Source of the DNA: a virus
DNA length: 32,550 nucleotides
Direction: 5' to 3' (one strand)
Virus record (IMG/VR): IMGVR_UViG_3300017914_002709
Location: 84,698-117,247 of that record
Positions 1 through 27,325 of this stretch are shown in pieces. The position numbers and the translations under genes are program-made. Numbering within the stretch: the first letter of the stretch is position 1; each line of letters starts with the position of its first letter. Under the pieces are notes generated by a model. It had not been told where the DNA came from and did not search any database. It saw only the letters and a list, made by a program, of their open reading frames with translations.

Positions 1-210
1 ATCAATTTGTTAGAAAAAATAAAAGATAAAACCTTTTTTAATGGTCCGAAAAAACGTAATTTGCAGCATTTGATAAACATAATAAAAGATGAATGTGTAA
101 ATAACAGCACAGATTTGTCAAAGTTTTTTTCTACTAATGACATATTAGATTACAGTAGGAATACTAGTGTAATTAAAATGCATCCTTATATGGAGAAATA
201 TCGTGTTTAA
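1..210 (+). CDS. C-terminal fragment of a probable N-terminal-twitch radical SAM protein (starts upstream of the window)
   Basis: Frame is open from base 1. The tail KFFSTNDILDYSRNTSVIKMHP resembles the C-terminal motif of the downstream radical SAM paralogs (e.g. KFFDYTRKLDQSRKQNVYDVLP). Confidence 0.6.
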   Translation: MNLLEKIKDKTFFNGPKKRNLQHLINIIKDECVNNSTDLSKFFSTNDILDYSRNTSVIKMHPYMEKYRV

Positions 211-1315
211 ATGTGGATGGCTTGCAGGTGGAATAAACATTTCAGAAAACCCAGAACGGTCAGTTATGCCTTGCTGTCATGTTGATAAGTTGAATCAAGA
301 TAATAAACATTTAATTCATAATGGTAATGATTTAATAAATGGCGATACACTTAGACAAATGCGTAAAGATGCAGTAAATGGAAAAACACCAGAGCTGTGT
401 AAAAATTGTGTATCAAAGGAAGAAATAGGTATTGATACACCACGTTTGCGTAGTATTAGAGATTTTAAAAACAAAGGTATTGTTAAAGAAGTATTTTCTC
501 CTGAAGATGTAGAAGTATTATACTTAAAGTTCAGCAACCTTTGTAATTTTAAATGTGTTATGTGTGGGTCTGGTAGCAGTCATTTGATTGCCAAAGAAAA
601 TGGCATGAAAGATAGTTTGATTGAAATAAACGATTACTATGAAACACAATTATTAGATCTATTGCCACGTATGACTAACCTACGTCATGTGCAAATCACT
701 GGCGGCGAACCTTTGCTACACAAAAAGAAAAATTTAGATTTTTTAAGCAAACTCGATAAAAGTGTTAAAATACAGTATAGAACAAATGGTAGTATTCATG
801 ATACTGAAGTAATTGAATTTTTAAAAACATTTGATACTGTGCAATTTTTAATGTCAATTGACGGACAAGAAGATGTGCTACATTATCAACGTCCAAGGAG
901 TAACTGGAGTGAAATTAAAACAAATCTTGAAAAGTATAAAGGACAAGGTTTTGAAATTATTAATACTATGACTGTTACTGCTTTTAACATACATCAGATA
1001 CCTAAGTTTGCTTCTGAACACGGACACTTATTTGACTTTATGGTATTCACTCCAATTAGATTTCCTGAAGCATATAGAATAAATTTGATTAAGCAAGATA
1101 AGTTGTTGCAAATTGTAGATGAATTAAAATCTACTACGGTTACAGGCGACCTTGCCAATTATATAAAAGATATTGAAGCAAATCATTTGTCAGCGCCAGA
1201 CAATAAAATAGTTAGAAAGTTTTGGCAATCAGTTGATTATATGAAGCAGCATAGAGATGTTGAGTTAAAACAACTGATACCAGAAATGTACGATTTTTAT
1301 CTAAAAGAGCAATAA
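203..1315 (+). CDS. Radical SAM protein with N-terminal twitch (Fe-S) domain
   Basis: CNFKCVMC (CxxxCxxC), TGGEP, TNG and SIDG motifs. N-terminal C...PCC...CKNC. GTG start with GGAG upstream. Confidence 0.9.
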   Translation: MFKCGWLAGGINISENPERSVMPCCHVDKLNQDNKHLIHNGNDLINGDTLRQMRKDAVNGKTPELCKNCVSKEEIGIDTPRLRSIRDFKNKGIVKEVFSPEDVEVLYLKFSNLCNFKCVMCGSGSSHLIAKENGMKDSLIEINDYYETQLLDLLPRMTNLRHVQITGGEPLLHKKKNLDFLSKLDKSVKIQYRTNGSIHDTEVIEFLKTFDTVQFLMSIDGQEDVLHYQRPRSNWSEIKTNLEKYKGQGFEIINTMTVTAFNIHQIPKFASEHGHLFDFMVFTPIRFPEAYRINLIKQDKLLQIVDELKSTTVTGDLANYIKDIEANHLSAPDNKIVRKFWQSVDYMKQHRDVELKQLIPEMYDFYLKEQ

Positions 1316-1318
1316 TTA
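1312..1318 (+). promoter_or_regulatory. Possible late-promoter-like motif ATAATTA 5 nt before the ATG at 1324
   Basis: AATAATTACTATTATG resembles GATAATTACTACTATA (11613) and GATAAATACTACTATA (30498, - strand). No Shine-Dalgarno before 1324. AT-rich background makes a chance match possible. Confidence 0.3.
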
Positions 1319-1323
1319 CTATT

Positions 1324-2532
1324 ATGCAGTGTGTAATGCCTTTTGTACATATGAATATAAAGCCTGATAAAACTGCGACTGCATGTTGGAGATGTCACGA
1401 AAAGTTAGGCAATTACACAACAAACAGTTTAGAAGATATATGGTATAGTGAGGAATGGCAAGTGTTCCGCAAACAACATCTTACAGGTGAACAACCAGAC
1501 GGTTGTAAGAGTTGTTGGCAAATGGAACAAGCAGGTATCAAAAGCACTAGACTCACAATGCTAGAAGAATATAGTCATAAAGTCAATGACTTAAATCAAG
1601 TAGAAGATTTAACCAAGCCTCCGTTTCCAAAAGACATGGAGTTTAGGTTTGGAAATTTGTGTAACATGAAATGCAGACATTGCAGTCCAAAGTTTAGCAG
1701 TCAGTGGGTATCACAATGCAAGAAAGATAAAGACTTTTATAATGTTGTAAAAGATATCTCAGATGGCAATCTAAATTACAGTATCAATGAATTACCTGAC
1801 GACACAATGCAGCAGCTAAAAAGTTTTGCATCTAATCTTGAGGTAATACGTATTACAGGCGGAGAGCCTTTGATGCATCCTATGCACTACGAAATGCTAG
1901 ATGTGTTAGAACCATATGCACATAATATTACACTTGAATACAATACAAATTTGCATTATTTAAATGATGTAACCGAACAGTGGAAGAAGTACAAAAAAGT
2001 GATTTGTCGTGTAAGTGTTGATGCAGACACTAGCACATATGAATATATTAGAGAAGGTGCAAATCTAAACAAATTATTAGAAAACTGGAAGACAGTTAAA
2101 AGTGAAATGTCTGAACAAATACAAAACAAAACATTTGACTTACATGCTACTTGCACTGTAAATGTTTTGAATGTTGTTAAAATAGACAAGGTGTTAGAAT
2201 TATTTACAAAATTAGATTCAAGATTGCATGTAAGTTTTGTTCAATATCCAGCAGTAATGGATATATGTAATTTGCCAGAATGGCAAAAGAATGATGTAAA
2301 AAACAAGTGTGCTATAGGACTTGACTATGTAAAACACAACGGATCAAATCGTTTATATCATCATGCAACACAAAGTATAGATAAAATTTTACAATGGTTA
2401 AACAAACCTAGTAACACAGAATTTGATCACACATTTGCTAAATGGATGCAAGCACAAGATCGTGTGAATAATAAATCCATGTTTGATTACTATACCGAAT
2501 TTGATTATTTGAAGGAAATATACAATGAGTAA
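1324..2532 (+). CDS. Radical SAM protein with N-terminal twitch domain
   Basis: CVMPF...CWRC...CKSCW at the N-terminus; FGNLCNMKCRHC; TGGEP; YNTN; SVDA. Confidence 0.9.
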   Translation: MQCVMPFVHMNIKPDKTATACWRCHEKLGNYTTNSLEDIWYSEEWQVFRKQHLTGEQPDGCKSCWQMEQAGIKSTRLTMLEEYSHKVNDLNQVEDLTKPPFPKDMEFRFGNLCNMKCRHCSPKFSSQWVSQCKKDKDFYNVVKDISDGNLNYSINELPDDTMQQLKSFASNLEVIRITGGEPLMHPMHYEMLDVLEPYAHNITLEYNTNLHYLNDVTEQWKKYKKVICRVSVDADTSTYEYIREGANLNKLLENWKTVKSEMSEQIQNKTFDLHATCTVNVLNVVKIDKVLELFTKLDSRLHVSFVQYPAVMDICNLPEWQKNDVKNKCAIGLDYVKHNGSNRLYHHATQSIDKILQWLNKPSNTEFDHTFAKWMQAQDRVNNKSMFDYYTEFDYLKEIYNE

Positions 2533-3283
2533 AGTTTGGGCATTTGGATGTAGTCATACACTTGGTACAGAACTAGGTGTATCTAAATACATTGACACAG
2601 ACAAATGGATGATGGATAATGCTGGCACTACAAATATATGGCAAGTACCCGAAAAGCAATTAGCCAAAGTAAGAAACGATTGGGCAGATCTTTTACATGA
2701 ACTTTACAATAGTACAAATTTAGCAGAAGAAGAAAAGCATCTTTCTTATGCAGGACAAGTTGCTAAACAACTTGGATACGAATTATGCAATCGTGCAATC
2801 AAAGGCTCTGGTGCAGATAGATCATTACATGAACTTAGTGTTGTGTGTGAAAAACATATCGATTGGGATAAAGACATTGTGTTTGTTGGTTATACTCATA
2901 TATACAGATTTATGTTCAATGAAGAACAATGGGATGGTAATAGAAATCTCAACTGGATGAAAACACACAAGCAAAAACATTTGCAGCAGTTACACAAAAT
3001 GATGTTAGTAGACGGGCCATGTGATTACTTTTGGAGTGCAGCGAATGCAGGTATCTACTATATGATCAAAACTGCATTTCCAAAAGCACATATGATAGAT
3101 GTAATAAATACCACAAATACATTTAAACCAGGTGTATTTTTAAAAGACTTACGATATAACGACAAAACTTTACAAGATTTTTCAAAGCCAAGTGATATCT
3201 ATCCCCAAGGGCATTTCAAAGAATACACACATGTTGAACTTGCCAAACACCTATGTGAGAAAATAACAAATGAATCCTCCTAG
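2525..3283 (+). CDS. SGNH/GDSL-hydrolase-like protein
   Basis: Block I-like VWAFGCSHT, block II-like NRAIKGSG, C-terminal PQGHF histidine. Confidence 0.65.
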   Translation: MSKVWAFGCSHTLGTELGVSKYIDTDKWMMDNAGTTNIWQVPEKQLAKVRNDWADLLHELYNSTNLAEEEKHLSYAGQVAKQLGYELCNRAIKGSGADRSLHELSVVCEKHIDWDKDIVFVGYTHIYRFMFNEEQWDGNRNLNWMKTHKQKHLQQLHKMMLVDGPCDYFWSAANAGIYYMIKTAFPKAHMIDVINTTNTFKPGVFLKDLRYNDKTLQDFSKPSDIYPQGHFKEYTHVELAKHLCEKITNESS

Positions 3284-4445
3284 CAAAACATTTTGTAATC
3301 TACCTTGGATGCACATTGCTACAAATGCAAGTGGTAATATAAGACCCTGTTGCAATAGCACACCTGGTAAAAACTTTATAAAAGATCCAAAAACTGGACA
3401 ACCTTACAAACTAGGAAAAGCATCACTAGAAGAAATCTGGCATAGTCCTGATTATGTAAAACTACGACAACAAATGCTTGCAGGGGAAAGACCAGAAATG
3501 TGTTCTAGGTGTTGGAAAGAAGAAGATGCTGGAATTGAAAGTCTGCGCCAAGCATGGATGGATAGATGGTTAGAGGATAAGGAATACACAGATAAACCTG
3601 ATTTGCATATACAGTATGCAGATCTTAGAATGGGTAATATGTGTAATTTAAAATGCAGAATGTGTAATCCTTATGCAAGCAATCAATGGTTAGACGAATG
3701 GCATTTGATAAACGAACCTTTATCTGAAGCAGAACACAAGAGACTCGGTGGAGAATCTTGGCCTTGGTATAGATATACACAGTTTGAAGAAAATGTTGAT
3801 GCTATGATTGACACTGTTGAAGAAATTTATTTCACAGGAGGAGAACCTACAATTATCAAAGAACATGCATATATTCTTGAAAGAGTGATTAGATCTGGAA
3901 GAGCTAAAAAAGTTAAAATTAAATACAACACTAATTTAACAAATATTCCAAATTACCTTTTAGATATCTGGAAAGAATTCAAAGCAATAAAATGTAATGT
4001 TAGTATTGATGCTATTGGAGAATTAGATAGGTACATTAGATATCCTAGTAATTGGGATAAAATAGAAGAAAACTTTTTAAAAGTAAGACAGTTAGACAAT
4101 GTGGTAAATGAAATACATTGCACTGTGCAAATGTATAATATCACAAGGCTACATGAATTTTTAGATTGGGCAAAACCGTTTAATCATAAAATTTATTTAA
4201 ATATTTTAAATCATCCAGAAGAGTTAAACATACGTGTGTTACCTAATGAACTTAAGAATATTGTAACGGATACACTGTCTAACTACACAGATATTCCAAA
4301 AGTCCAAGGTGTTATTGATTATATGAATTCAGAAGAGTGGACTGATAAATTGCCCAAGTTTTTTGACTATACTAGAAAGCTAGACCAAAGCAGAAAACAA
4401 AACGTATATGATGTACTACCGGAGTTAGAAAAATATGAGTCGTAA
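3270..4445 (+). CDS. Radical SAM protein with N-terminal twitch domain
   Basis: FCNLPW...RPCC...CSRCW; MGNMCNLKCRMC; FTGGEP; YNTN; SIDA; YIRYPSNW. Confidence 0.92.
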   Translation: MNPPSKTFCNLPWMHIATNASGNIRPCCNSTPGKNFIKDPKTGQPYKLGKASLEEIWHSPDYVKLRQQMLAGERPEMCSRCWKEEDAGIESLRQAWMDRWLEDKEYTDKPDLHIQYADLRMGNMCNLKCRMCNPYASNQWLDEWHLINEPLSEAEHKRLGGESWPWYRYTQFEENVDAMIDTVEEIYFTGGEPTIIKEHAYILERVIRSGRAKKVKIKYNTNLTNIPNYLLDIWKEFKAIKCNVSIDAIGELDRYIRYPSNWDKIEENFLKVRQLDNVVNEIHCTVQMYNITRLHEFLDWAKPFNHKIYLNILNHPEELNIRVLPNELKNIVTDTLSNYTDIPKVQGVIDYMNSEEWTDKLPKFFDYTRKLDQSRKQNVYDVLPELEKYES

Positions 4446-5085
4446 GAGAATTGCTGTATTTGGTTGTAGCTGGTCGCAAGGCGTAGCAAGTTTAAATAAT
4501 TTTGATAATTGGGTTAAACATTTGGCTAAAAAACGCCCTGAACATGATTTTTATAATTTTGGTTGCGGCGGAACTAGCATAGTATATCATGCTTATCTTT
4601 TAGATTCAATAACAAGAAGAGAAGAGTTTGATCATATAATTTTCCAAGTTACAAGCCCTGGTAGATATTCATGGTGGCAACCTCACAAATTGAATGAAAT
4701 GATAGAACGCCAAGACGACAATTATTGGGCTGTTGCAAGAGGGTACGGAAAATATGTTCAAAGAGTTACTATGGGTAGTTTGCAAAAAGGTGCATTAGAT
4801 AAGAAAACACAAAAGTTTGCAAACGAATATTACAAAAGACTTAGCGACGATCAAAAAGATATTGAATATAAAGTTTATATAGAATTTGCCAAAGCAAGAT
4901 CTGATTTGGTATTTTTTCATAGAAAAGGTTTACAAGAAGGAGATCTTAGTGTAAAATCAATACTAGGAGATGATAAATTTTACAGTTTTGTAAGCGACGA
5001 TGGAGATCATTTTGGTGTTGAAGGTAACCAATGGACAGCCAATTGGGTGAATAAACGTTTGATAAGAAAAGGCGTAATGAAGTGA
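4435..5085 (+). CDS. SGNH/GDSL-hydrolase-like protein
   Basis: IAVFGCSWS, NFGCGGTS and C-terminal DGDHF (DxxH). Confidence 0.72.
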   Translation: MSRKRIAVFGCSWSQGVASLNNFDNWVKHLAKKRPEHDFYNFGCGGTSIVYHAYLLDSITRREEFDHIIFQVTSPGRYSWWQPHKLNEMIERQDDNYWAVARGYGKYVQRVTMGSLQKGALDKKTQKFANEYYKRLSDDQKDIEYKVYIEFAKARSDLVFFHRKGLQEGDLSVKSILGDDKFYSFVSDDGDHFGVEGNQWTANWVNKRLIRKGVMK

Positions 5086-6383
5086 AAGACACGTTTTGTC
5101 CGATACCTTGGCTATTTCAAGCAGTAAGAGCAAACGGAGATATTCGTATTTGCTGTCAAGCCAATGTGACAAAAAACAAAGGTGTAATAAGAAAATCTGA
5201 TGGAAGTGCCTACAATGCTGGCATTGATAATATTGAAGATGCTCGTAATGCTGAACTTATGAATGAAGTTAGAAACAACATGCTCAACGGTGTTTGGAGT
5301 GAAGAGTGTGGTCGTTGTAAGCGTGAAGAAGAGAATGGTTTAGTAAGCCGTAGAGAATTCGAGAACGAAGCATGGGATTTTGATATAGAAGCAGCAAAAC
5401 AGGTTACACATGCTAACGGAACAATCGATATGCCTGTGCGTTATTATGATTTACGCTTTGGTAATTTTTGTAATTTAAAATGTAGAATGTGTGGACCAAC
5501 AGACAGCAACGCATGGTACGAAGATTGGATAAAACTTACAGGTTCAAACACATTTCAAGAGTCAAGCAAACAAGTTGAGATTTACCAACAAGGCAACAAA
5601 CTACACGTAGATGGTTATGAGTGGCCTGAATATGAACCGTTTTGGCAGCAACTTGAAAACAACATCAGCAACATTGAGCATGTGTATTTTGCTGGCGGCG
5701 AACCTATGCTTATTGAAAGACATTATGATTTTTTAGAAAAATGTATAGAACAAGACGCTGCAAAAAATATACAAATTGAATACAATACCAACATGACAAC
5801 ATTACCAAGTCGTGTGCTAGAGTTATGGACACACTTTAAAAAAGTAATGATTGGTGCAAGCGTGGATGGTATGGGTGCTGTATTAGAATATCAACGGCAT
5901 CCTGTGAAATGGAATAAGGTATATAAGAATTTACAAAAAGTAGATTCGTTGCCTAATAACATTCAAAGTTGGCTTACTTTTACTGTTACTGCATACAATG
6001 TAAATCACATGATTGATTTTATGAAATGGAAATTGCAAGATAGTAATTTTAAACGTGTCAATAGCACTAAAAAACGTCCTATTATTTCTCCCCATGTAGC
6101 ACACCATCCTATGAATTTAAATGTGCGAGTGTTGCCAGATGCCCTAAAAGCAGACCTTACTGATAAGTTTGAAAACTTTGTGCAATGGTGTAAAGATGAA
6201 GATTATCCACATTGGGTTGTTGCACAAGCAGAAAAAATAAGTACAAGTGTTACCAGTTTTATGAACAGCGAAAGTTACTATGATGAACATTGGGCAGGTT
6301 TTGTTAGTTATACAAAAAGTTTAGATAAGATGCGTAATGAAAATCTACTTGACGTAGAGCCTATGTTTAAGGATTATATATGA
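5082..6383 (+). CDS. Radical SAM protein with N-terminal twitch domain
   Basis: FCPIPW...ICCQ...CGRC; FGNFCNLKCRMC; FAGGEP; YNTN; SVDG. GTGA start/stop overlap with the upstream gene. Confidence 0.92.
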   Translation: MKDTFCPIPWLFQAVRANGDIRICCQANVTKNKGVIRKSDGSAYNAGIDNIEDARNAELMNEVRNNMLNGVWSEECGRCKREEENGLVSRREFENEAWDFDIEAAKQVTHANGTIDMPVRYYDLRFGNFCNLKCRMCGPTDSNAWYEDWIKLTGSNTFQESSKQVEIYQQGNKLHVDGYEWPEYEPFWQQLENNISNIEHVYFAGGEPMLIERHYDFLEKCIEQDAAKNIQIEYNTNMTTLPSRVLELWTHFKKVMIGASVDGMGAVLEYQRHPVKWNKVYKNLQKVDSLPNNIQSWLTFTVTAYNVNHMIDFMKWKLQDSNFKRVNSTKKRPIISPHVAHHPMNLNVRVLPDALKADLTDKFENFVQWCKDEDYPHWVVAQAEKISTSVTSFMNSESYYDEHWAGFVSYTKSLDKMRNENLLDVEPMFKDYI

Positions 6384-7516
6384 GTTTTGATACAGTAGAT
6401 CTACTTACTGGAAAAGTATTCCAAGTAACTTGGGATTTAGGTAGAAGATGTAACTATGATTGTAGTTATTGCCCAGCACACAGACATGACAACTTTAGTC
6501 CTCATGCAAGTTTAGATGAATTAAAAAGCAGTGTTGATTTTTTGTTTGAATACATTGACACTTATATGAGTGTGAGAAACTTTAAAAATACAAGCATAAG
6601 TTTCACAGGTGGCGAGCCTACAGTGAATCCAAACTTTATTCCTTTTGTAAAATACCTCAAGGAAGAATACGAAAAACGTTATGCAGACAAATGGCAAGCA
6701 GGATTTGCACTTACAAGCAACGGTGCTATGAGTGCAAAAATGGCTCAAGGTGTTATAGACAATTTAGGACATATTACTGTGAGTTATCATGCTGAAAGTG
6801 ATAACAAACTAAAACAGCAAGTCAGAGATAGAATCAAACAGTTTCACGATGCAGGATTTAGCATCAGTTGTAATGTAATGTTTCATGCTGCTTATTTTGA
6901 TGAGTGTAAAGATTTATGTGATTACTTGCATGATTTGGGTGTAAAGTATGTGCCACGTATAATTGGTGAAGAGCCCGACAGTGCAAGTAATTTTGCACAT
7001 CAATACACAGAAGAACAACTTGATTACATGAAAAATTACTGGAAGTATAAAAACGAACAGTTGAATGATTCTAGAGAAGAAGCAAATATATTGAGTGCCG
7101 TTGGAGAAAAGACCACTGAGAAAAAGAAATTAGGTGCAACCATTGGCAGACCTTGTTGCGGTAGTAGGGAAATGTGCTTGAGTCTAAACGGTGAAAGTAG
7201 AAAAAGTACTTTTGTTGATTATAGAGAATTCAAAGGTTGGCATTGTAGTGTAAATTATTTCTTTTTGCATTTAGAACAACAAACAGACAGTGTTTTTCAT
7301 CATCAAACATGTCAAGCACGTTTTGATCAAACAAGAGGGCCTATTGGAAAAATAAGTGAAGGACAAAAGATTGTTGCTGATCTAAAAGAAAAATTAGCTA
7401 CCAATACCTTGCCCACGATAATTTGTCCTAAACAAACATGTGGCTGTGGGTTGTGTGCGCCAAAAAGTATGTATGCTGAAAATTATAATCAAGTATTGGA
7501 GAACCATTTGGTATGA
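6380..7516 (+). CDS. Radical SAM protein with Cys-rich C-terminal (SPASM/twitch-like) region
   Basis: WDLGRRCNYDCSYC; FTGGEP; TSNG; SYH; C-terminal RPCCG, FKGWHC and CPKQTCGCGLC. Confidence 0.9.
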   Translation: MSFDTVDLLTGKVFQVTWDLGRRCNYDCSYCPAHRHDNFSPHASLDELKSSVDFLFEYIDTYMSVRNFKNTSISFTGGEPTVNPNFIPFVKYLKEEYEKRYADKWQAGFALTSNGAMSAKMAQGVIDNLGHITVSYHAESDNKLKQQVRDRIKQFHDAGFSISCNVMFHAAYFDECKDLCDYLHDLGVKYVPRIIGEEPDSASNFAHQYTEEQLDYMKNYWKYKNEQLNDSREEANILSAVGEKTTEKKKLGATIGRPCCGSREMCLSLNGESRKSTFVDYREFKGWHCSVNYFFLHLEQQTDSVFHHQTCQARFDQTRGPIGKISEGQKIVADLKEKLATNTLPTIICPKQTCGCGLCAPKSMYAENYNQVLENHLV

Positions 7517-9442: not shown

Positions 9443-9451
9443 AAGTATAAT
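9423..9451 (+). promoter_or_regulatory. Perfect sigma70-type promoter (phage early-type)
   Basis: TTGACA (9423-9428), 17 nt spacer, TATAAT (9446-9451). The ATG of the next gene is at 9457. Confidence 0.85.
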
Positions 9452-9456
9452 ATAGC

Positions 9457-12367: not shown

Positions 12368-13047
12368 TACTAGATAAAGATACACGTTTTGAAATGTATC
12401 CTAAGATACAAGAAGAAGCATATAGAAAATTACACACTGATAAATGTATTCCAACATGTCTCAAAATTGATCCTGGTAATTTTAAAAGCACTATAGAATC
12501 ATATCAACGTTGTTTTAAAACATGGAGTAATAATCGGTCAGATCAATTAGAAATTAGACAAGGACTTGCACTTGTAAATCTCACAGGCACAGTTTATCAA
12601 GATGAAGATTTAACAATAGGTCCTCTTGATTATTATAACAAATGTAACCCGAACAACGGGTTAAATGAAACTGACATTAGAGAAAAGACTGAACTGTACT
12701 ATGAATCTTGTTTTGATCCATTGCGTGTATTTGATGATACTATCATTAGAAGTAGCATCTTAAAATGGCAACCTGGTGCAAACTTTAAACCACATTGGGA
12801 TTTGCAAACACCAACGCCACATTTGAGATTGTGGGGCACCACTGATCCAGATAACATTCAATTACGGTTTGATAATAATGGAGTGTTCGAACCTGTTGAA
12901 AATATAGAAGCAGGCAGAATATATATTATTGATAGTGCAATTGTACATGATGCTGTATGTATCAATAATATTGGATATCAATTTTTTATTGCTGTTGCTT
13001 CAGAAGCATACAATACAATGCTAGAGATAAGAGATGAAATACTTTAA
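12358..13047 (+). CDS. 2OG-Fe(II) oxygenase / Asp-Asn beta-hydroxylase-like protein
   Basis: PGANFKPHWD (HxD) and distal GRIYIIDSAIVHDA histidine. Confidence 0.7.
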   Translation: MDMILDKDTRFEMYPKIQEEAYRKLHTDKCIPTCLKIDPGNFKSTIESYQRCFKTWSNNRSDQLEIRQGLALVNLTGTVYQDEDLTIGPLDYYNKCNPNNGLNETDIREKTELYYESCFDPLRVFDDTIIRSSILKWQPGANFKPHWDLQTPTPHLRLWGTTDPDNIQLRFDNNGVFEPVENIEAGRIYIIDSAIVHDAVCINNIGYQFFIAVASEAYNTMLEIRDEIL

Positions 13048-13588
13048 AACATTAGATCTTCCAGTATTTGATTTATATCAAACATTTAAAGATTTGAACT
13101 TAAAATGGACTAGCCACAAGCAAATATGTATCAATACAACTTTGCCTGATAATGACGATGTTGCTATTGGTGTAGGTAGCCTTACTTATGATTGGGATAA
13201 TGCATACACAGACAATGAAGGCAATAAAATTGTTCCAAAAAAAGATATTGTGTATGATGAAAGCGATTTTAAATATCTTTGTACAAGATTTATTGGCACA
13301 CCATTTGAAATAGTTTATAATGCACTTGCAGAAAAATATGTTTTGGGTAGAGTAAGACTTATGCGCAGTGATCCAAAGACTTGTTTGACTTGGCATGTGG
13401 ATACAAGTCCAAGAGTGCATTTTCCTGTAAAAACACATGAAGGCTGCTTTATGGTTATTGAAGATGAAATCATGCACTTACAAGAAAACACTTGGTATTG
13501 GACTGATACTACTGTACATCACACAGCATTCAATGGTGCTAAAGAAAGTAGAATACATCTAGTGGCTAGTGTGTTAGATCAAAAATGA
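13034..13588 (+). CDS. Aspartyl/asparaginyl beta-hydroxylase-like 2OG-Fe(II) oxygenase
   Basis: GRVRLM...WHVD...RVHFPVKT...HHTAFNG...RIHLV pattern. Confidence 0.8.
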   Translation: MKYFKTLDLPVFDLYQTFKDLNLKWTSHKQICINTTLPDNDDVAIGVGSLTYDWDNAYTDNEGNKIVPKKDIVYDESDFKYLCTRFIGTPFEIVYNALAEKYVLGRVRLMRSDPKTCLTWHVDTSPRVHFPVKTHEGCFMVIEDEIMHLQENTWYWTDTTVHHTAFNGAKESRIHLVASVLDQK

Positions 13589-14106
13589 TTGAAAAGTTAG
13601 AAGATAAACACATTCCTATGATAAAACAGTTTTGCAAAAAATGCAAAGCACTAGGATGGAAGAACAATCAAAGTATTGAAGCCATGCGTTATAATAGAGT
13701 AAATCGCACTGGCGGCGCATTTTTAGGTTTATTTGACGAAGAACTTGTTGGTGTGGCAGGATATTTGCCATTGCCTGAAATTGATTCAAATGCTTGGCGT
13801 ATATTTTATCGTAGTGCAACATTGCCTGGCAAAGGTCCAAACAAAGGACTGCACAGAGGTACAGGACCAAGAGGAAGAATGTTTATAGACAAGTTTATTG
13901 AAAACTTGCCCAATGCTGAATTATATGTTACAACTAATTTAGCAAATGATGAATATGAACATATACTAAGATATCACAAGTCTATGGAAATAGAATCTCG
14001 AATGAAGGACGCATATATAAGCAAACTTTGTGAAACAAGTATTGATAATGCAGTGCAAGCAGTATGGAAATTAGACGTACAAAAGTATTTGGATAAAACA
14101 AGATGA
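13585..14106 (+). CDS. GNAT-fold acyltransferase-like protein
   Basis: FLGLFDEELVGVAG...WRIFYRSATLP...LHRG...LYVTTN pattern resembles a GNAT core. Confidence 0.5.
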   Translation: MIEKLEDKHIPMIKQFCKKCKALGWKNNQSIEAMRYNRVNRTGGAFLGLFDEELVGVAGYLPLPEIDSNAWRIFYRSATLPGKGPNKGLHRGTGPRGRMFIDKFIENLPNAELYVTTNLANDEYEHILRYHKSMEIESRMKDAYISKLCETSIDNAVQAVWKLDVQKYLDKTR

Positions 14107-14732
14107 TAACACAAGAACACATTAAAGAAATCGACATTGAATACGATAGACAAGCACTAGAAGATTTTTATCACGAAATCAAACATAGAGCAAAACCTTA
14201 TATTGAAGTGCATACTGAATACTTAGAGGAAGATGCAGAACATAGTCCTTATTTTAGATGTATTTGTCCTAAATGTTTGCCTACTGGTAAACATCAGCAT
14301 AGTGGAGACAAACACAAATTTATCCGTAGATTAGACAGATTTAAAAATCCTGAAGTTGATAGAATTACTGAACAATTAGAAGAATACACCAAGTGTGATA
14401 CATCTAACAAACCTGTGATGTGGATATATGAACCAGGATTTGTGTTACCACCACATAAAGATTATCTAAGACATTTTAGTATAATGGTTCCAATTCTACC
14501 AGCAGAAGGCGGCGCAACAGTTGATATTTACAATGAAGATTTGCCTGTGATCGACAAAGGCACATATACAACTGTTGAACACAATGACGATTATTTAATA
14601 GGTACTCATACATACAAATTAAATTGCCCTACAGCATTAAATGCTAATAGGGCAATACATGGAGTAAGAAATCAAAACACAACTCGTGTTTTTATCAATT
14701 ACAGCGGTTACTGTAATTGGAGTGATGTTTGA
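14103..14732 (+). CDS. 2OG-Fe(II) oxygenase-like protein
   Basis: LPPHKD (HxD), IHGVRN and distal R (TRVF). Extra CICPKC motif. Confidence 0.7.
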   Translation: MITQEHIKEIDIEYDRQALEDFYHEIKHRAKPYIEVHTEYLEEDAEHSPYFRCICPKCLPTGKHQHSGDKHKFIRRLDRFKNPEVDRITEQLEEYTKCDTSNKPVMWIYEPGFVLPPHKDYLRHFSIMVPILPAEGGATVDIYNEDLPVIDKGTYTTVEHNDDYLIGTHTYKLNCPTALNANRAIHGVRNQNTTRVFINYSGYCNWSDV

Positions 14733-16090
14733 CGTAATTTATATCTTTGTATTTTACCAGTTGGTGTTTTAGGTAATTCATTTACAATATCTACATAATG
14801 CGGATAGTGATTCACTGGCAGTTCATCTATACAAAGTTTTTTAACTTCATTCTTTGTTGAATCAATATCTACTTTGGTAACAACAAATGCTTTGATCTTT
14901 GTAAGTTCGTTGTGATCTAAAGCTGTTACAACTGCACATTCTAGTACATTGTTGTGTTCCATAATTTTAGATTCAATATCAATTGGTGATACCCATACTC
15001 CACCAATTTTAATCATATCGTTACTACGTCCTTTGTAATAATATTTTGCTTTATCTTTGACAAACATATCACCGGTAAGGAACCATCCATCCTCGGCAAG
15101 ACTGTCACCTTGAATTTGCAAGTATCCTACTTCGCCGTCTGGAACTACTTCTCCGTTGTTATCTACAATTTGTGCTTTGTATCCAGGAACAATTCTGCCA
15201 CTGCACCCTGCTTCGCTGTATTCATGTCTGTTGCTGATAAAAATATGCAATGCTTCGGTTGTACCAATACCGTCAAAAATTGTAACACCTACTGTATCTT
15301 GCCATTTGTTATAAATTGGTGCTGGTAACGATTCGCCTGCACTCACACACATTCTTAAACTGGTCAAGTCACGTTTGCGATTTTTAATTGCGGATAATTG
15401 ATGTGCGTACAGTGTTGGCACTCCAAAGTAAATTGTAGGTTTGTATTTTTCTATTGCATCTAATGTGCTTTTTGCTGTGCTCGGTTCTTTTATTAGAACT
15501 GTGCTTGCACCTACAAACAACGGAAATGTCATGCTGTTGCCTAGTCCATATGCAAAAAATAGTTTTGCACTGCTGTATGTAACATCATATGCATTCATAT
15601 ACAATGTCTTTTTTGCATAATTGATAGCAGTTGGTGCTAGATCTTTATGCTTGTGTGGAATGCGTTTGATGTAACCTGTAGTGCCACTACTGAACAAATA
15701 AAAGCAAACATCATTCCTTTCAGCACCATACGGTTCAAAATCTGTGTCGTCTGTAGCACTTTTGTCAAAATGTTCAATATTATGATTTGTAAAAACACTT
15801 TTTGGATTGTGTTTTATAATAATATTTTTTTCATCTTCTTTTCTAAGCATGGTGCTCAACAACATTGGACGAATTCCTGCTTTGATTGCACCCCAAAACA
15901 AATAAAAATATTCTGGGCAATCATCGAGAATAATCATAATCTCATCATTGGGCTTAATTGTCTCTTTGAGTTTATTAGCATAACGATTTACATTGTTATA
16001 CAATTCGTCATAGCTAATAACCTTGTCCTCAAAGTAAATTGCAGTATGTGGAGATTTTCTAATAAAATCTTCTATTGCATTGTAGTGCAT
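14708..16090 (-). CDS. AMP-forming acyl/aryl-CoA ligase, benzoate-CoA ligase-like
   Basis: FSSGTTG P-loop, AKLFFAYGLGNS, SAGE, DGIGTTEALHIFISN, TGD, GRSNDMIK and PKTPTGKIQR. Confidence 0.88.
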   Translation of the reverse strand: MHYNAIEDFIRKSPHTAIYFEDKVISYDELYNNVNRYANKLKETIKPNDEIMIILDDCPEYFYLFWGAIKAGIRPMLLSTMLRKEDEKNIIIKHNPKSVFTNHNIEHFDKSATDDTDFEPYGAERNDVCFYLFSSGTTGYIKRIPHKHKDLAPTAINYAKKTLYMNAYDVTYSSAKLFFAYGLGNSMTFPLFVGASTVLIKEPSTAKSTLDAIEKYKPTIYFGVPTLYAHQLSAIKNRKRDLTSLRMCVSAGESLPAPIYNKWQDTVGVTIFDGIGTTEALHIFISNRHEYSEAGCSGRIVPGYKAQIVDNNGEVVPDGEVGYLQIQGDSLAEDGWFLTGDMFVKDKAKYYYKGRSNDMIKIGGVWVSPIDIESKIMEHNNVLECAVVTALDHNELTKIKAFVVTKVDIDSTKNEVKKLCIDELPVNHYPHYVDIVNELPKTPTGKIQRYKLRQTSLQLQ

Positions 16091-16938
16091 TGTTCAATCC
16101 AATCTTTGCTTTCTTTATTTAAGTACTTCAACGATACTTCTTCGTAAAGTTTGATATCTTCTGCATTTAGTACATTTTTCCATTTGTTGTTTGTGCCTGT
16201 GTGGAAAAAATTATTATTTCCTTCTTTGTATGTCCATTTACTGTTTGGTAAAATAATATCTGCATTATTTTTCATTTCGACAAAACTTGTTAGTTGTGAA
16301 ATATTTTTGTTATAATCTTTGATATCTAAAAATTCTGCTACACGTTTTATACCACTGTCTAAATCATTGAGCAAATCATTGTAGTGTATCAATAGTACAT
16401 TATTGCATTGAGATTTATTCCACCAAGTCTGAAAATGTCTTAAATTTGTCCAGTGAGGCCATCCTTCTGTATCCCATTCTGATGTTCCTACAGTAAGCCA
16501 TTTTTGCCAAAACTCTTTTATATCATTTGGACATGTTGGTAATTCTTTTACCATAGTGTAAAAATTGTCTGTGTAATTTTTGTATTGATTCCACATTGAC
16601 ATGAAAACATCACGTGGATCTCTTCCTACAAATATATATTTGACATTTTTATCAAAAAGCAAAGCATCCGCAGGTAAATGTGATTTAAAACAACGTCTAT
16701 GGTTTTGTGATTCTATTTGTTCTACAAGCACATCAATTGACTTGGTTTTATCTTCTACCCAATGCGAATATGATGTTAAATCGAAATGACTTTCAGTTTG
16801 TAGTATAAGATGCATTACAATATATTGCATCCATGTAGTTCCACTTTTGTATGGTGTAACAACAACTATGTCATTGTTACGTAATTTTACATGGTTCCAT
16901 CTTGTACTATCTAGAATAAAATTATTGTAGGTTTTCAT
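16072..16938 (-). CDS. PAPS-dependent sulfotransferase (Sulfotransfer_1 type)
   Basis: 5'-PSB motif TPYKSGTTW, FKSHLP, 3'-PB motif RDPRDVFMS, and C-terminal FFHTGTNNKW. Confidence 0.9.
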   Translation of the reverse strand: MKTYNNFILDSTRWNHVKLRNNDIVVVTPYKSGTTWMQYIVMHLILQTESHFDLTSYSHWVEDKTKSIDVLVEQIESQNHRRCFKSHLPADALLFDKNVKYIFVGRDPRDVFMSMWNQYKNYTDNFYTMVKELPTCPNDIKEFWQKWLTVGTSEWDTEGWPHWTNLRHFQTWWNKSQCNNVLLIHYNDLLNDLDSGIKRVAEFLDIKDYNKNISQLTSFVEMKNNADIILPNSKWTYKEGNNNFFHTGTNNKWKNVLNAEDIKLYEEVSLKYLNKESKDWIEQCTTMQ

Positions 16939-17671
16939 AGTTTTCAGCTATACACAATCTTGCAACGTCTTTACGCACAAAGTCAGCATACTGTTTGTCT
17001 GTGCTAGTAGCCATATAAACACTATCGCTAGGTACTAAGTTGTATTCGTTACATATTTCTTTTTGTTTATTATAAAACTTATTATGAATATAGTCAATAT
17101 CAAAATTTGTAATAATAGCTTCAGCAATGTCTTGTGCATAGTAATTATAGTAATGATTTTTATAAATCAAGTTGTGTAATTTATCAATACGTTTTTTACT
17201 AAAAAGCCAACCGGTACGAATAAAATTTACACCAAACGGTTTGCTTAAACTGTAAAAAACAGTATCTACACCATCGTGTAAATCAATCTGCTGAACTTTT
17301 GTTGTACCAACATATGCCAAGTCTAGTGCAACTTTAACGTGATTATCAACTGCACAATAATTACCATCTATTGCACTTGGAATAGTTTGATATACATAAT
17401 GCGGAGCCATTCCAGACATTTTGTAATCTACCCATTCGTATTCACCTACAGCTCTCCAAATCTTGTATTCTGATGTTCCGTGCCAGTAATTGATACCTTC
17501 GGTGATTCCGTTAATAGGATATACATAGAAGTCCTTTAACTCTATAACAGGAGCAAGCCATTTTTTAATGTTGGTTTTATATCGCCGTGGAGACAAGTCT
17601 AATTGAACACTATCAATTATTTTTTTCACTTCTGGTAGTAATGGTGTCCTAACTTGCTTGCTAAATTTCAT
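16922..17671 (-). CDS. Compact PLP-dependent (fold type I) aminotransferase-like protein
   Basis: NGITEG, PSAIDGN, LDLAY (DxAY) and SLSKPFG...RTGW (PLP lysine motif). Confidence 0.7.
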   Translation of the reverse strand: MKFSKQVRTPLLPEVKKIIDSVQLDLSPRRYKTNIKKWLAPVIELKDFYVYPINGITEGINYWHGTSEYKIWRAVGEYEWVDYKMSGMAPHYVYQTIPSAIDGNYCAVDNHVKVALDLAYVGTTKVQQIDLHDGVDTVFYSLSKPFGVNFIRTGWLFSKKRIDKLHNLIYKNHYYNYYAQDIAEAIITNFDIDYIHNKFYNKQKEICNEYNLVPSDSVYMATSTDKQYADFVRKDVARLCIAENYENLQ

Positions 17672-17826
17672 GCTAATTTAGCCCAATACTTTCCTTCTCC
17701 TGTAATTGTATAAGTTCTTGGATCTCCCCAAATGCTTTTTACAATTTCAATAGCATGGTTTTCATTATTAGCATATACCATATCTATGTGTAATCTACCA
17801 GAATAAACATTGTATGTTTTAATCAT
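17668..17826 (-). CDS. 52-aa hypothetical micro-protein (not in the ORF track)
   Basis: MIKTYNVYSGRLHIDMVYANNENHAIEIVKSIWGDPRTYTITGEGKYWAKLA. Its ATG overlaps the thiolase stop (TGATG) and its stop overlaps the next ATG (ATGA), exactly filling the gap. Confidence 0.75.
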   Translation of the reverse strand: MIKTYNVYSGRLHIDMVYANNENHAIEIVKSIWGDPRTYTITGEGKYWAKLA

Positions 17827-18938
17827 CAAAACACCTTTATAATCATTGCTGCACCTGTGTCCCCGCCGGCTGCACCTGTGATAAGTCCATAGCCACCTCC
17901 TATATCAACAAGCTCTTCAATTGCTTCAATTGTTAAACGTGATAGTACAGGACTTTGAGGATGACCATATACCAAAGGACTACCATAATTGTTCATGTTG
18001 AAAACGTTTATATCAAATGCATTTGCAAAAGCAATATCATTTACAACAAATGCATTATGCTGATTTATAACGTCTATGTTACTTATATCTAAATTTGCTT
18101 TTTGTAATGCCATTCGAGCAGCATTGATACTAGCTAATGGCATATAACTTTTTTCACATCTACTATATCCGTAACTTATAATTTGTACAAGTACTGTGCT
18201 GTGTGTAAGAGCAATTTCTTTATTACTAACAAGTATTCCGCAATGTCCGTCTGCAGGACTTGTTACATTACCGATACTGTGATATTTTTGTATCGGCTTC
18301 AATTTGCTCAATCTTTCGTAGGTTATGTTTTTGACACCTTCGTCATTGTCTAGCCCTGCAACATATTGCATATATCTTTTGTTTTTAACGCTGTTATATT
18401 GTTTATATCTATGAGCAGTAACTTCGTCCATATGTTGTGTGCTAACATTGATGCGTTCAGCAACTAGTTCGGCAGTCTCAAGCATACTTGTTTTACCCCA
18501 AGGGTCATACGCAAAGTTGTCTTCAATCCAGTTTTCTACCTTGTCATAATTTGGCCAAGTTACTATAGGACCGTTACTAGTCCTATCTGCTGTAAGGATA
18601 TATGTTTGGTTACACATACCCGTTTCCACGTGTGTAGCAGCGTTATACAGCGCCAATAAGCCCGTTGTACATGCTTGATTTATCATATGCCCTGTTGTGT
18701 GCTCACAACCCATAAGAGCTGCACTCCACGGTCCTGCCCAAAAACCATGATGCTGATGAACGCTGTTTCCGTAAATTACATAATCAATTTCTTTTGGGTC
18801 TATATATTTTATATCAAACCATTCTTTTGATGATTGGGCACTTAGCTCGATAGCGTTATAATCTTTGTATGTTTTACCATACCTACTAAATGGTGATGTA
18901 AAATAACCGCCCAAAGGTATATATGCATTTTCAAACAT
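17826..18938 (-). CDS. Thiolase-family protein
   Basis: INQACTTG (nucleophilic Cys), HNAF, YGHPQ and C-terminal TGAAGGDTG. Confidence 0.88.
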   Translation of the reverse strand: MFENAYIPLGGYFTSPFSRYGKTYKDYNAIELSAQSSKEWFDIKYIDPKEIDYVIYGNSVHQHHGFWAGPWSAALMGCEHTTGHMINQACTTGLLALYNAATHVETGMCNQTYILTADRTSNGPIVTWPNYDKVENWIEDNFAYDPWGKTSMLETAELVAERINVSTQHMDEVTAHRYKQYNSVKNKRYMQYVAGLDNDEGVKNITYERLSKLKPIQKYHSIGNVTSPADGHCGILVSNKEIALTHSTVLVQIISYGYSRCEKSYMPLASINAARMALQKANLDISNIDVINQHNAFVVNDIAFANAFDINVFNMNNYGSPLVYGHPQSPVLSRLTIEAIEELVDIGGGYGLITGAAGGDTGAAMIIKVF

Positions 18939-19239
18939 CTAAGTAGTGTCCTGTAAGTTCTTCTCCGGCTTTTACATTTTTTGTAGTTACCGCATGAAAA
19001 AATCTTCGCTTTCTTTTTAAAATTAGATTTGGATTATTAGAATGATTTACAAATCCTCCAAGAGGCATCCTTATTAATCCATCTTTGCATAGGTAATGCG
19101 CTTGTCCTAGATCTGTATTCGCAGGAATGTCCTCCACAGCAAACAATCCTAAGCCATGTATTGGAGATTCTTTTACAGTGACATTTTGTGGCAAAGGGTT
19201 ATAGTTATTCTTGATAGTTTGGTTCCATGAATCTGTCAT
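18931..19239 (-). CDS. Minimal SET-domain protein (lysine methyltransferase fold)
   Basis: SPIHGLGLFA...FVNHSNNPN...GEELTGHY. Confidence 0.88.
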   Translation of the reverse strand: MTDSWNQTIKNNYNPLPQNVTVKESPIHGLGLFAVEDIPANTDLGQAHYLCKDGLIRMPLGGFVNHSNNPNLILKRKRRFFHAVTTKNVKAGEELTGHYLDV

Positions 19240-20386
19240 ACATTTTCTTTTTCAGTTGATGGGCACTGTACGTTTTCATACCTTCTGGTACATATGTATT
19301 GATGTATCTACTCAATTCGTCAATATAGTGGTGTGCAGGTTGAATAGTTTTAGTGCTATTGATAAATTGACCTCTACGCCAACATAAGGCACTATTGTAT
19401 GATCCAAATTCTACTGTTGCAACCCATAGTTTAGGTTTGATGTAATACATTAGACAACATTGGTTACATTTTAGTCCAGGCACATTTAAACGTTTGCCAG
19501 CACCATTACTTGGATGAATGCCGTCACGAATCCAATGTAACGGTTTATTTGCTTCGGGTATGACAGTTTTAATATAATTGTTTAATTCAATTCCTGTATA
19601 TGAAGTTTGCTCGTCTTCGTTTTCGTATAGGTCTTCTACATATCTACCTTGCTTTGCTGCACAACGGAATCTAATGTTTGTAACAACACCGTCTGGTAGA
19701 GAATTTGCAATATCGTAAAACTCTTTTACAACACCTTCGTTCAAATTTTTTACAATAATTGCATTGATACACAGTCTTGTAAATCCTGCTTCAACGCAAT
19801 TCCAAAAACCTTTTACTTTCTTTTTTCTATGACTAATGTCGTGATCAATTGTTTTGTACCACTCGTCATTATAAAATCCGCCATTTAGAGATATTGATAA
19901 ATTTACTAGTTTTGGATTAGGGCAATTGTCAATGCAATCTTTTAATTTCTTAACAAAACTTTTTTGAGCAAGTCTAATACCGTTAGTAACAATTGCAATA
20001 CTATGCCCGTATTTTGTGCCAACATTGATAGCCTCAAATAAATGCTTCCAAAGCGTAGGTTCTGCACCTACTAGACGCATTTGTACTGGTCTAGGCAAAC
20101 TTGCACACAATTCTTCAAACACTTTAATATCTAAATCTTTGTAGTGTCTAATAGGAGTCATACAAAATCCACACTCCATATTGCACTTGTATGTTGTATC
20201 AATATACAAGAAACTAAAAGGATTCTTGTCCATTGTGTAATCAGGAACATTATGAAAAATAGGCGGCTGATGAGGTAACAATGTGATATTGTCATCATCG
20301 GGATTACCTGTCATAGGTGCATTCATACCAGCAGTTTTTGCACGTACTCGTTCTAGATTATTTGGATTGACAAGTCTGTCAGACAT
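19205..20386 (-). CDS. Radical SAM protein (divergent)
   Basis: TTYKCNMECGFC, VGAEPT, VTNG; C-terminal CNQCC and CWRRG. Shine-Dalgarno AGAGGAG upstream. Confidence 0.85.
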   Translation of the reverse strand: MSDRLVNPNNLERVRAKTAGMNAPMTGNPDDDNITLLPHQPPIFHNVPDYTMDKNPFSFLYIDTTYKCNMECGFCMTPIRHYKDLDIKVFEELCASLPRPVQMRLVGAEPTLWKHLFEAINVGTKYGHSIAIVTNGIRLAQKSFVKKLKDCIDNCPNPKLVNLSISLNGGFYNDEWYKTIDHDISHRKKKVKGFWNCVEAGFTRLCINAIIVKNLNEGVVKEFYDIANSLPDGVVTNIRFRCAAKQGRYVEDLYENEDEQTSYTGIELNNYIKTVIPEANKPLHWIRDGIHPSNGAGKRLNVPGLKCNQCCLMYYIKPKLWVATVEFGSYNSALCWRRGQFINSTKTIQPAHHYIDELSRYINTYVPEGMKTYSAHQLKKKMYDRFMEPNYQE

Positions 20387-20409
20387 ACTTTACTCCTCTT
20401 AGTATATAC

Positions 20410-20438
20410 AGTATATAGCAAAGATAAGTTTTTGTCAA
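20410..20438 (-). promoter_or_regulatory. Sigma70-type promoter driving the - strand enzyme operon
   Basis: TTGACA (20438-20433), 17 nt spacer, TATACT (20415-20410), in the intergenic gap. Confidence 0.8.
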
Positions 20439-22383: not shown

Positions 22384-22392
22384 TATTTTTCC

Positions 22393-27229: not shown

Positions 27230-27254
27230 ATGTATTCCTCCTCAGTGCCCTAGT

Positions 27255-27283
27255 ATAATAACAATATTTACAACTATTGTCAA
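27255..27283 (-). promoter_or_regulatory. Sigma70-type promoter with extended -10
   Basis: TTGACA (27283-27278), 17 nt spacer, TG-T-TATTAT (-10 at 27260-27255). Confidence 0.75.
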
Positions 27284-27322: not shown

Positions 27323-27325
27323 CTA

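Follow-up and report, generated by a model that had tools for sequence, protein, structure and literature searches.

The closest described counterparts of the locus reported here are the host recognition clusters of pelagimyophages and cyanomyophages. According to the accessible part of PMC7029224, these are large hypervariable tail-fibre islands with glycosyltransferases (GTs, GT8 being the commonest) and exchangeable radical S-adenosylmethionine (SAM) cassettes, for which modification of the host O-chain is proposed, without a test. The present island was found in IMG/VR record IMGVR_UViG_3300017914_002709, a linear virus contig of 117,247 bases (estimated to be 32 % complete). Positions 84698-117247 of this contig (G000:C1), 32,550 nucleotides, form the stretch analysed and are referred to as the window. 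The island is likewise a hypervariable block at tail-fibre genes with GT-like genes and radical SAM cassettes, but it belongs to another phage lineage, spans 61 kb with 23 radical SAM genes and has fixed enzyme anchors. Moreover, the host recognition cluster is placed between VrlC and the neck gene gp14, whereas the present island lies between fibre genes and a block of Mtd_N, VWA and AAA genes.

Other precedents are partial. A marine T4-like viral genome with 12 radical SAM genes documents radical SAM expansion in an uncultured marine phage, but these genes were read as serving Fe-S-related metabolism and the accessible text draws no link to glycosyltransferases, fibres or subfamilies (PMC5332604). 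Mycobacteriophage GTs put glycans on virion proteins, namely capsid and tail tube, according to the passage of PMC12619734 that cites this work and that names neither radical SAM enzymes nor acyl tailoring; the moraphages treated there are a different lineage. According to the accessible text of PMC12801897, cyanophage GT clusters include an amidinotransferase and a radical SAM enzyme; the term 'radical SAM' does not occur in that of the jumbo-phage overview PMC7824862, and the available part of bioRxiv 10.64898/2026.10.24.761521 mentions glycosyltransferases in general terms only. No published description of this island was found; subscription journals and supplements (including those of PMC5332604 and PMC7824862) lay outside the search and may list its genes. 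The island type thus has a precedent in print, from which the combination with 23 radical SAM enzymes and fixed enzyme anchors differs. It works like a glycan-tailoring host-recognition island and is not a member of any characterized pathway tested, in line with an earlier note on the window that knew of no pathway of this composition.

Extent and gene content of the island

The earlier note, made from the letters of the window, had described positions 1-20438 as a phage tailoring island beginning at window base 1. The true left boundary lies about 40.6 kb further left: the island runs from contig 44109 to 105135 (61 kb, 66 ORFs, 23 radical SAM genes), and the flagged 20 kb is its last third. 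Baseplate genes, a T4-like late sigma factor and fibre genes precede it; to its right come the genes of an S8 protease and an Mtd_N fibre-like protein and then the VWA/AAA block. The viral context stated in the note was confirmed. Window 1-20438 contains 23 complete ORFs (≥80 aa), one 53-aa ORF and one gene truncated by the left edge, arranged in two convergent runs that meet at 14708-14732. The assembly was supported by contigs of four runs that were colinear with window 1-20000 (30 of 30 bins covered in each run); these represent four studies, one of which is shared with a possible source sample. A cellular origin or a chimera was ruled out by the viral gene context and by the colinear contigs from other studies. 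Thus neither finding that the note had named as fatal to its reading was made: the contig is viral, not cellular, and the genes do co-occur in related phages.

The island opens with the gene order h115, GTa1, GTa2, h190, GTb, radical SAM. Its GT-like content comprises two GT8-like, two GT-A-fold (GTb and GTb2) and three GT10-like genes, and it also carries a nucleoside diphosphate (NDP)-sugar epimerase/dehydratase, a DegT aminotransferase, a halogenase-family gene, a QueC-like gene and an amidinotransferase-like gene, the last labelled by reading its sequence, without a Pfam match. The GTa2 profile matched glycogenin in the PDB (E 3.5e-6 over 103 positions), and GTa1 is a paralogue of GTa2 (HHalign 99.8 %); the DxD motif is invariant in both, with a PF01501 match in two of 36 members. 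The model of GTb has a GT-A fold, with glycocin S-glycosyltransferases and the PBCV-1 capsid glycosyltransferase as top Foldseek matches (E 1.5e-4 to 8e-4) and, by VIA, a Z score reaching 9.8 across 133 residues (rmsd 3.2). The core gene labelled 'MT' gave weak class I SAM-fold matches only (E 0.03), and no clear membrane helix was found in the island proteins (maximum 19-residue hydropathy 1.56). The absence of a scaffold synthase (polyketide or non-ribosomal peptide type) stated in the note was borne out, whereas the absence of GTs holds for the window only. Because the GT8-like, GT-A-fold and GT10-like genes lie in the same island, the four targets that the note had left open (virion proteins or glycans, a small peptide, nucleotides, a host molecule) narrow towards glycan.

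Radical SAM enzymes and other predicted activities

Most of the enzyme calls of the earlier note were confirmed by profile searches. All eight complete radical SAM enzymes of window 1-20438 have the CxxxCxxC motif and score above the PF04055 cut-off, and the partial one at the left edge is complete in the contig (83750-84907, 385 aa, PF04055 E 2.7e-11). The nitroreductase, coenzyme A (CoA) ligase, sulfotransferase, thiolase fold and SET domain were each matched by Pfam/NCBIfam models, and the SDR (short-chain dehydrogenase/reductase) and the fold-type I pyridoxal phosphate (PLP) enzyme by profiles against the PDB (E 1.9e-12 and 1.5e-6, respectively). Three calls stood in part. The first of the three 2-oxoglutarate (2OG) oxygenases is supported by Pfam (start 13034) and the second by HHalign (12358, 98.8 %), while the third (14103) has the HxD..H motif only, with no significant HHalign match. 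Among the four SGNH-like proteins the fold was found for 4435-5085, whose best Foldseek matches were a CE3 carbohydrate esterase, GDSL acylhydrolases and TesA; two others share its motifs in the alignment and 8666-9442 is a reading of motifs only. In the SGNH-like alignment G10, S12 and H192 are invariant in 21 of 21 sequences, in line with the block I Ser, block II Gly and block V His of the family; there is no conserved GxND (block III Asn) and an invariant Arg77 lies nearby. The GNAT match was weak (E 0.005).

Five of the eight window enzymes (starts 203, 1324, 3270, 5082 and 7513) passed the cut-off of NF033640 (N_Twi_rSAM), taken as >170 bits plus an N-terminal Cys cluster, and three (6380, 9457 and 19205) failed it. 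Across the island the 23 radical SAM enzymes fall into four types: 12 with the N-terminal twitch Cys pattern, seven and three with C-terminal Cys clusters of two kinds, and one separate. NF033640 is a sequence family only, labelled 'function unknown' in its model text, and the literature search turned up no assayed member. Identity among the 23 paralogues has a median of 25 % and a maximum of 42 % (87 aligned pairs), and non-synonymous polymorphism (pN) is far below synonymous (pS) in the three genes tested (for r941, pN 0.06-0.09 and pS 0.84-0.90); recent duplication or decay is thereby ruled out. For radical SAM enzymes that dehydrogenate or epimerize amino sugars and cyclitols there is precedent in BtrN, NeoN and HygY (accessible text of PMC10991966). 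They offer a functional analogy only, as two island queries gave no sequence match to them. The twitch domain of BtrN, NeoN and HygY is C-terminal.

Anchors and cassettes in phage relatives

Hundreds of aquatic phage contigs share the anchors of this island and carry different cassettes between them, as seen in the comparison across large phage genomes that the earlier note had proposed. Confirmed IMG/VR stretches numbered 393 for GTb and 290 for r941, of which 80 each were kept; the loci are related, not independent. Both GT8-like genes lie upstream of GTb in all 76 loci with enough flank, fibre genes lie further upstream of the pair in 62 of 62, and a radical SAM gene follows within two genes of GTb in 64 of 65. 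Right boundary genes were found within 10 kb of r941 in 31 of 80 loci, the S8 protease being the edge in 13 of 80. The radical SAM genes r802, r813, r910 and r941 recur at high identity (68-91 % for r941 in the 80 kept stretches), whereas other radical SAM and accessory genes vary between phages; the semi-conserved enzyme at 6380-7516 has an orthologue of at least 50 % identity in 23 of 80 loci. Nine selected contigs had 5-20 PF04055 matches each. The 'phage assembly line' of the earlier note therefore holds as a phage tailoring block, not as a single line: some of its genes are constant anchors, others are cassettes that can be exchanged, and at least one module is mobile on its own.

A Pfam scan of relatives' islands covered 146 representatives from 287 protein clusters; more than half of the representatives had no match. 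Among the matches, sugar enzymes stand beside methyl-, acetyl-, carbamoyl- and sulfotransferases, 2OG/TauD oxygenases, a desaturase, aminotransferases and solute-binding/transport proteins; additions to the gene set seen here include UDP-glucose dehydrogenase, a carbamoyltransferase, FkbM methyltransferases and GT9- and GT32-like genes, and QueC-like genes occur in 41 of 80 islands. TctA/B/C, DctP, OpuAC and other solute-binding or transport genes were seen in five islands (L144, L146, L148, L164 and L094). Before r802, 26 of 28 phage loci encode a 74-aa protein (contig 80018-80242; L005:10018-10242) with 74-88 % identity among phages.

The sole match to GTb and GTa2 among 50,697 phage records was the cultured Ralstonia phage RsoM2USA (MG752970). 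Its ORFs 355-347 run fibre, h115, GTa1, GTa2, h190, GTb, radical SAM, GTb2, MT at 28-45 % identity, but the genome has a single PF04055 match, there are no accessory cassettes and the block is annotated as hypothetical. RsoM2USA is grouped with XacN1 and is distant kin of Rak2-like phages (accessible text of PMC8504454), and the source of the window is an XacN1/RsoM2USA-like marine jumbo phage. The PA5oct homologue of s299, a virion-type protein encoded just upstream of the GT8-like pair, is annotated as seen by electrospray ionization tandem mass spectrometry (ESI-MS/MS), which we read as presence in virions.

Cellular copies in Bdellovibrionota

The three-radical-SAM core (r802, r813, r941) is also present in Bdellovibrionota chromosomes, often among sugar genes. 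GTDB yielded 72 loci with r941 relatives, 65 of them strong (47-85 % identity), and the majority of the strong ones are labelled Bdellovibrionota (47-69 % identity in this phylum). Among 33 Bdellovibrionota loci of at least 18 kb, r802 was found in 29, r813 in 27 and MT in 20. The core is an accessory trait, present in 18 of 301 genomes of the phylum. In Bdellovibrio sp. HCB2-146 its surroundings comprise four PF00535 GT2 genes, a pair each of UDP-glucose dehydrogenases and epimerases, and DegT, together with GNAT, a fatty-acid hydroxylase and an amidinotransferase homologue that is 41 % identical to that of the phage; a Peptidase_S74 fibre-like gene and two flagellins lie near the end of the cluster. 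A link of the core to fibre adhesins or flagellin was considered on the basis of HCB2-146 and one Peptidase_S74 gene in L217, in a check that covered the longest unassigned neighbour genes; it was judged to be chance and is not used as support.

On one Bdellovibrionales contig (L210, a single metagenome-assembled genome (MAG) contig), housekeeping genes, of ribosomal type as we read their sequences, are followed by r813, GTb2, r941, an s299 homologue, h115, GTa1, GTa2 and GTb; GC falls from 0.47 to 0.37 and the block from the s299 homologue to GTb occupies 11231-15642. A quick r941 tree (17 phage rows, 40 genome rows after dereplication and six paralogue outgroups) separated the phage group (SH-aLRT 95) from Bdellovibrionota, with saturated outgroups from which no root was readable. 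The matches in L167, L168, L170, L182 and L215, MAGs labelled Bacteroidota, Pseudomonadota, Chloroflexota and Actinomycetota, nest among the phage rows and probably represent phage contigs that were binned wrongly, so that part of the family's 'uncultured bacterial' membership is probably of phage origin.

Proposed function

The reading ranked first, tentatively, is that virion fibre proteins carry a glycan which the island enzymes build and tailor. What puts it first is the constant site of the block, the resemblance of the GT8-like pair to glycogenin, the virion protein that travels along with it and the reduced block of RsoM2USA. That a glycan is built or tailored at all, whether on the virion or on the host envelope, is considered probable. 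The two GT8-like enzymes would start or lengthen a glycan on the virion protein of s299/s351 type whose gene lies immediately upstream, and the core shared with Bdellovibrionota (r802, r813, r941, a GT-A-fold enzyme and a SAM-binding transferase) would produce an unusual sugar and transfer it, its radical SAM enzymes acting as sugar dehydrogenases, epimerases or C-C-forming enzymes by analogy with BtrN, NeoN and HygY. Through the exchangeable cassettes the product would come to differ in its acylation (SGNH, GNAT), amidination, sulfation, methylation, carbamoylation and hydroxylation, and the surface so obtained, different from strain to strain, would serve host binding or shielding. A repetitive 519-aa fibre-like protein (rep519; contig 76057-77616, minus strand; L005:6057-7616), encoded inside the island and divergent from GTb2, is a candidate glycan acceptor.

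Possible, though doubtful, is a combinatorial virion 'serotype' system, in which a fixed glycan core is diversified by dozens of cassettes in an abundant aquatic jumbo-phage lineage; three radical SAM enzymes, from unstudied subfamilies that predatory bacteria share, would make the core, and the cassettes would include a phage-borne aryl-acylation module centred on a one-cysteine acyltransferase of thiolase fold. If the virion reading is true, glycosylation of virions would no longer be a matter of a few transferases but would extend to hypervariable, antigen-like decoration in common marine phages. The island gives a testable context to a radical SAM family for which no assayed member was found and points to new radical sugar chemistry, and the core is approachable through a Bdellovibrio isolate genome and soluble enzymes.

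Several results weigh against a glycan on the fibres. Position, gene content, folds, fixed anchors, swappable cassettes and promoter motifs were observed directly, but every catalytic step, like the substrates, products and activities of the island enzymes, is predicted. The GT calls are at the level of fold, and nucleotidyltransferases, also GT-A, rank equally high in VIA; profile searches of the PDB gave nothing for GTa1 or the GT10-like family, for which the GT10 assignment is a lead only (score 0.80), and two radical SAM queries (3270-4445 and the r941 profile) had no sequence relative there at E 0.01. Many accessory families (nitroreductase, QueC-like, 2OG, desaturase, TauD, transporters) are not specific to sugars. 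GTb or GTb2 lies within 10 kb in just 17 of the 33 Bdellovibrionota loci, no GTa2 match was found in PA5oct-like phages despite their s299 homologue, and three copies of the acyl module (L248, L250 and L251) have no tail gene in the flanks examined. Finally, the early-type promoters on the main operons fit modification of the host surface or of DNA at least equally well.

Promoter motifs and a possible host-envelope target

Only near-perfect promoter sites carry weight here, because a loose consensus scan was at chance level (75 sites against 70.6). Perfect TTGACA-N16-18-TATA(A/C)T sites number six on the contig: five head island genes (contig 44061, 75504 and 77626; window 9423 and 20438), and the sixth lies in front of the late sigma gene. 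In relatives the sigma-70 motif (≤1 mismatch) was found upstream of h115 in 36 of 46 rows, GTb in 20 of 46, GTb2 in nine of 26 and r941 in 30 of 57, against a background of 31 in 3000 random windows; rows were deduplicated on identical upstream ends only and are related. The last copy of the s299 family often has the same motif as the GT operon (s351 8/22, s299 7/55). No such motif occurs upstream of h203 (12 rows), collar (23), fib2 (37), fib3 (37), Mtd (11) or rep519 (7), and TAAATA, which from T4 and from its position we take to be the late promoter, precedes h203 (12/12), fib3 (36/37), Mtd (9/11) and rep519 (7/7), as well as the nitroreductase (20/33) and 2OG2 (15/30), against a background of 222/3000. 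On this basis the core enzymes would be expressed early, and the fibres and part of the tailoring late.

Such timing would suit enzymes that remodel a host envelope glycan (O-antigen or capsule) early in infection and exclude competing phages, as does the setting of the cellular copies among genes of surface-polysaccharide type; the same reading is proposed for the analogous pelagimyophage island in the accessible text of PMC7029224. We nevertheless consider a host-envelope target rather unlikely. The island has no flippase, polymerase or membrane protein, its GT block keeps a fixed site behind fibre genes from soil to marine phages, and in RsoM2USA h115 is preceded by TAAATA without a sigma-70 motif.

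A separate mobile acyl module

The end of the island (13034-20386) is a unit of its own. The radical SAM, thiolase-like, PLP, CoA ligase, GNAT and 2OG3 genes were found together in all five distinct close contexts with sufficient flank (L248/249, L250, L251, L252/253 and L266; L254 begins at a contig edge), with 75-77 % identity to the radical SAM enzyme 19205-20386 in L248, L250, L251 and L252. The sulfotransferase occurs in two of the five other copies, an unassigned gene of about 300 aa occupying the same place in the other three; SET is likewise in two of five, and a DUF6356-like ORF (Pfam-checked for one) is in four of five and absent from the window module. The CoA ligase belongs to the benzoate-CoA ligase family by sequence (TIGR02262, 404.8 bits, cut-off 375.25) and falls in a compact subgroup, about 33 clusters in size, that stands apart from the 526-aa cellular enzymes (43-46 %), the window protein being about 60 aa shorter than cellular members. 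A single-protein scan of IMG/VR with it gave no match; an alignment scan gave 14 loci, seven close (53-63 %) and seven distant (24-29 %), and the two distant ones examined (L255 and L256) lack the module.

Aligned to 4c2j, the thiolase-like protein keeps the nucleophile Cys and the catalytic His, as do the 33 homologues examined. At the site of the second catalytic Cys (CxGGG) the window protein and the 28 top-ranked clusters (P0121-P0148) have Ala or Gly, whereas all five lower-ranked clusters examined have Cys. By established thiolase chemistry the protein should be able to form an acyl-enzyme yet condense poorly, and it is accordingly predicted to be an acyltransferase. A carboxylic acid, aromatic or other, would be converted by the module to its CoA thioester and hydroxylated or aminated, and the acyl group would pass to a sugar amine or hydroxyl via the one-cysteine thiolase-like protein or GNAT. 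No description of a phage acyl module of this make-up was found in the literature, subscription journals and supplements lying outside the search.

Such a unit raises the alternative that the island is a patchwork at an insertion hot spot, in which only the GT block and the core are directed at glycan, and the acyl module and cassettes make small molecules or edit acyl chains. The constant gene set, the occurrence of some copies away from tail genes, the module's own promoter motif in the window, and the transporters, desaturases, decarboxylases and ThyA/DHFR gathered in relatives' islands all accord with it. We give it a low probability, since module copies again adjoin sugar genes (an epimerase in L248; a cupin, a RuBisCO-like protein and a nucleoside triphosphate (NTP) transferase inserted within the module at L251:4926-6905; r941 in L252) and this contig's island has no product exporter.

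Possible DNA or peptide modification

Thymidine hypermodification uses radical SAM, PLP, flavin and GNAT enzymes. It would be conceivable that the oxygenases make a base handle that GTs glycosylate and other enzymes elaborate, with the early-type promoters in keeping. A QueE-like radical SAM gene truncated by the right edge of the window (31969-32550, minus strand; weak TIGR03963 match) and a second, divergent thymidylate-synthase-like gene of RsoM2USA (L267:3608-4444, MG752970.1 7607-8443), near a dCMP deaminase gene and possibly encoding a base-modifying enzyme, point the same way. Yet DNA as the target is highly unlikely: four uncultured relatives hold at most one PF00303 gene, with a canonical score where present (two of four), DpdA was not found in the records of any of five relatives, the core recurs next to sugar genes on bacterial chromosomes, and it is fibre genes, not replication genes, to which the island is tied. 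PF18724 and PF18723 were found in none of five records, and TET/JBP, ADDT and HMUDK_hel searches were blank, the controls also being without any match.

Least probable of all is cross-linking or modification of virion proteins or of a short peptide, in the manner of RiPPs (peptides made by the ribosome and modified after translation), by the twitch/SPASM radical SAM enzymes, AspH-like oxygenases, SET and GNAT: SPASM/twitch enzymes are often peptide maturases (accessible text of PMC11002830), the window has PF05118 and SET matches and the 74-aa ORF precedes r802, but all peptide-maturase models scored far below cut-off, and the 74-aa protein, the only short ORF examined for such a role, is conserved over its whole length, unlike a leader/core precursor, and is absent from all 53 r941-carrying loci labelled Bdellovibrionota.

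Features of the window and neighbouring genes

The features of the window are listed in Table 1.

Table 1. Features of the window (positions are those of the 32,550-nucleotide stretch)
Feature	Positions	Strand	Evidence or remark
3' end of N-terminal-twitch radical SAM	1-210	+	operon runs leftwards beyond window
Radical SAM	203-1315	+	PF04055; NF033640 207 bits
Radical SAM	1324-2532	+	PF04055; NF033640 285 bits
SGNH-like protein	2525-3283	+	motif level: GCS, late His
Radical SAM	3270-4445	+	PF04055; NF033640 398 bits; no PDB sequence relative at E 0.01
SGNH-fold protein	4435-5085	+	model pLDDT 92.8; Foldseek
Radical SAM	5082-6383	+	PF04055; NF033640 377 bits
Radical SAM with C-terminal Cys cluster	6380-7516	+	PF04055; semi-conserved
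Radical SAM	7513-8673	+	PF04055; NF033640 185 bits
Probable SGNH-like protein	8666-9442	+	GTS and DGTH motifs only; no family match
Perfect sigma-70-type promoter motif TTGACA-17-TATAAT	9423-9451	+	directly 5' of anchor radical SAM
Anchor radical SAM r941	9457-10572	+	PF04055
SGNH-like protein	10565-11215	+	motif level
Short SDR	11212-11688	+	YxxxK invariant in 30/30
Nitroreductase-family flavoprotein	11681-12367	+	Pfam
2OG-Fe(II) oxygenase	12358-13047	+	H146-D148-H197 invariant in 23/23; HHalign 98.8 %
2OG-Fe(II) oxygenase	13034-13588	+	PF05118; start of mobile acyl module
GNAT-like protein, module member	13585-14106	+	weak, E 0.005
Probable 2OG-Fe(II) oxygenase, module member	14103-14732	+	H118-D120-H186, R195 invariant in 5/5
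Benzoate-CoA-ligase-family enzyme, compact 447-487-aa subgroup, module member	14708-16090	-	TIGR02262
Sulfotransferase	16072-16938	-	Pfam/NCBIfam
Short fold-type I PLP enzyme, module member	16922-17671	-	K144 invariant in 23/23
53-aa ORF between PLP and thiolase-like genes	17668-17829	-	
Thiolase-like protein, module member	17826-18938	-	has nucleophile Cys and His; Ala at the site of the second catalytic Cys
Small SET-domain protein	18931-19239	-	Pfam/NCBIfam
Radical SAM of fourth type, module head	19205-20386	-	PF04055
Sigma-70-type promoter motif TTGACA-17-TATACT	20410-20438	-	heads minus-strand operon; island right end
Right boundary: S8 protease and Mtd_N fibre-like gene	20443-24402	-	beyond enzyme block

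The S8 protease at the right boundary (20443-22383, minus strand, 646 aa) has a C-terminal cupredoxin-like domain and lies directly behind the Mtd_N fibre-like gene. Further right, an AAA ATPase and a DUF2201 metallopeptidase/VWA protein form a pair (window 25952-28414, minus strand) with a near-consensus sigma-70 motif and a strong hairpin at 27255-27324. On the other side of the island, upstream of the fibre genes, the contig encodes a 4572-aa structural protein (22162-35880; L002:2162-15880) with CBM5/12 and FG-GAP matches.

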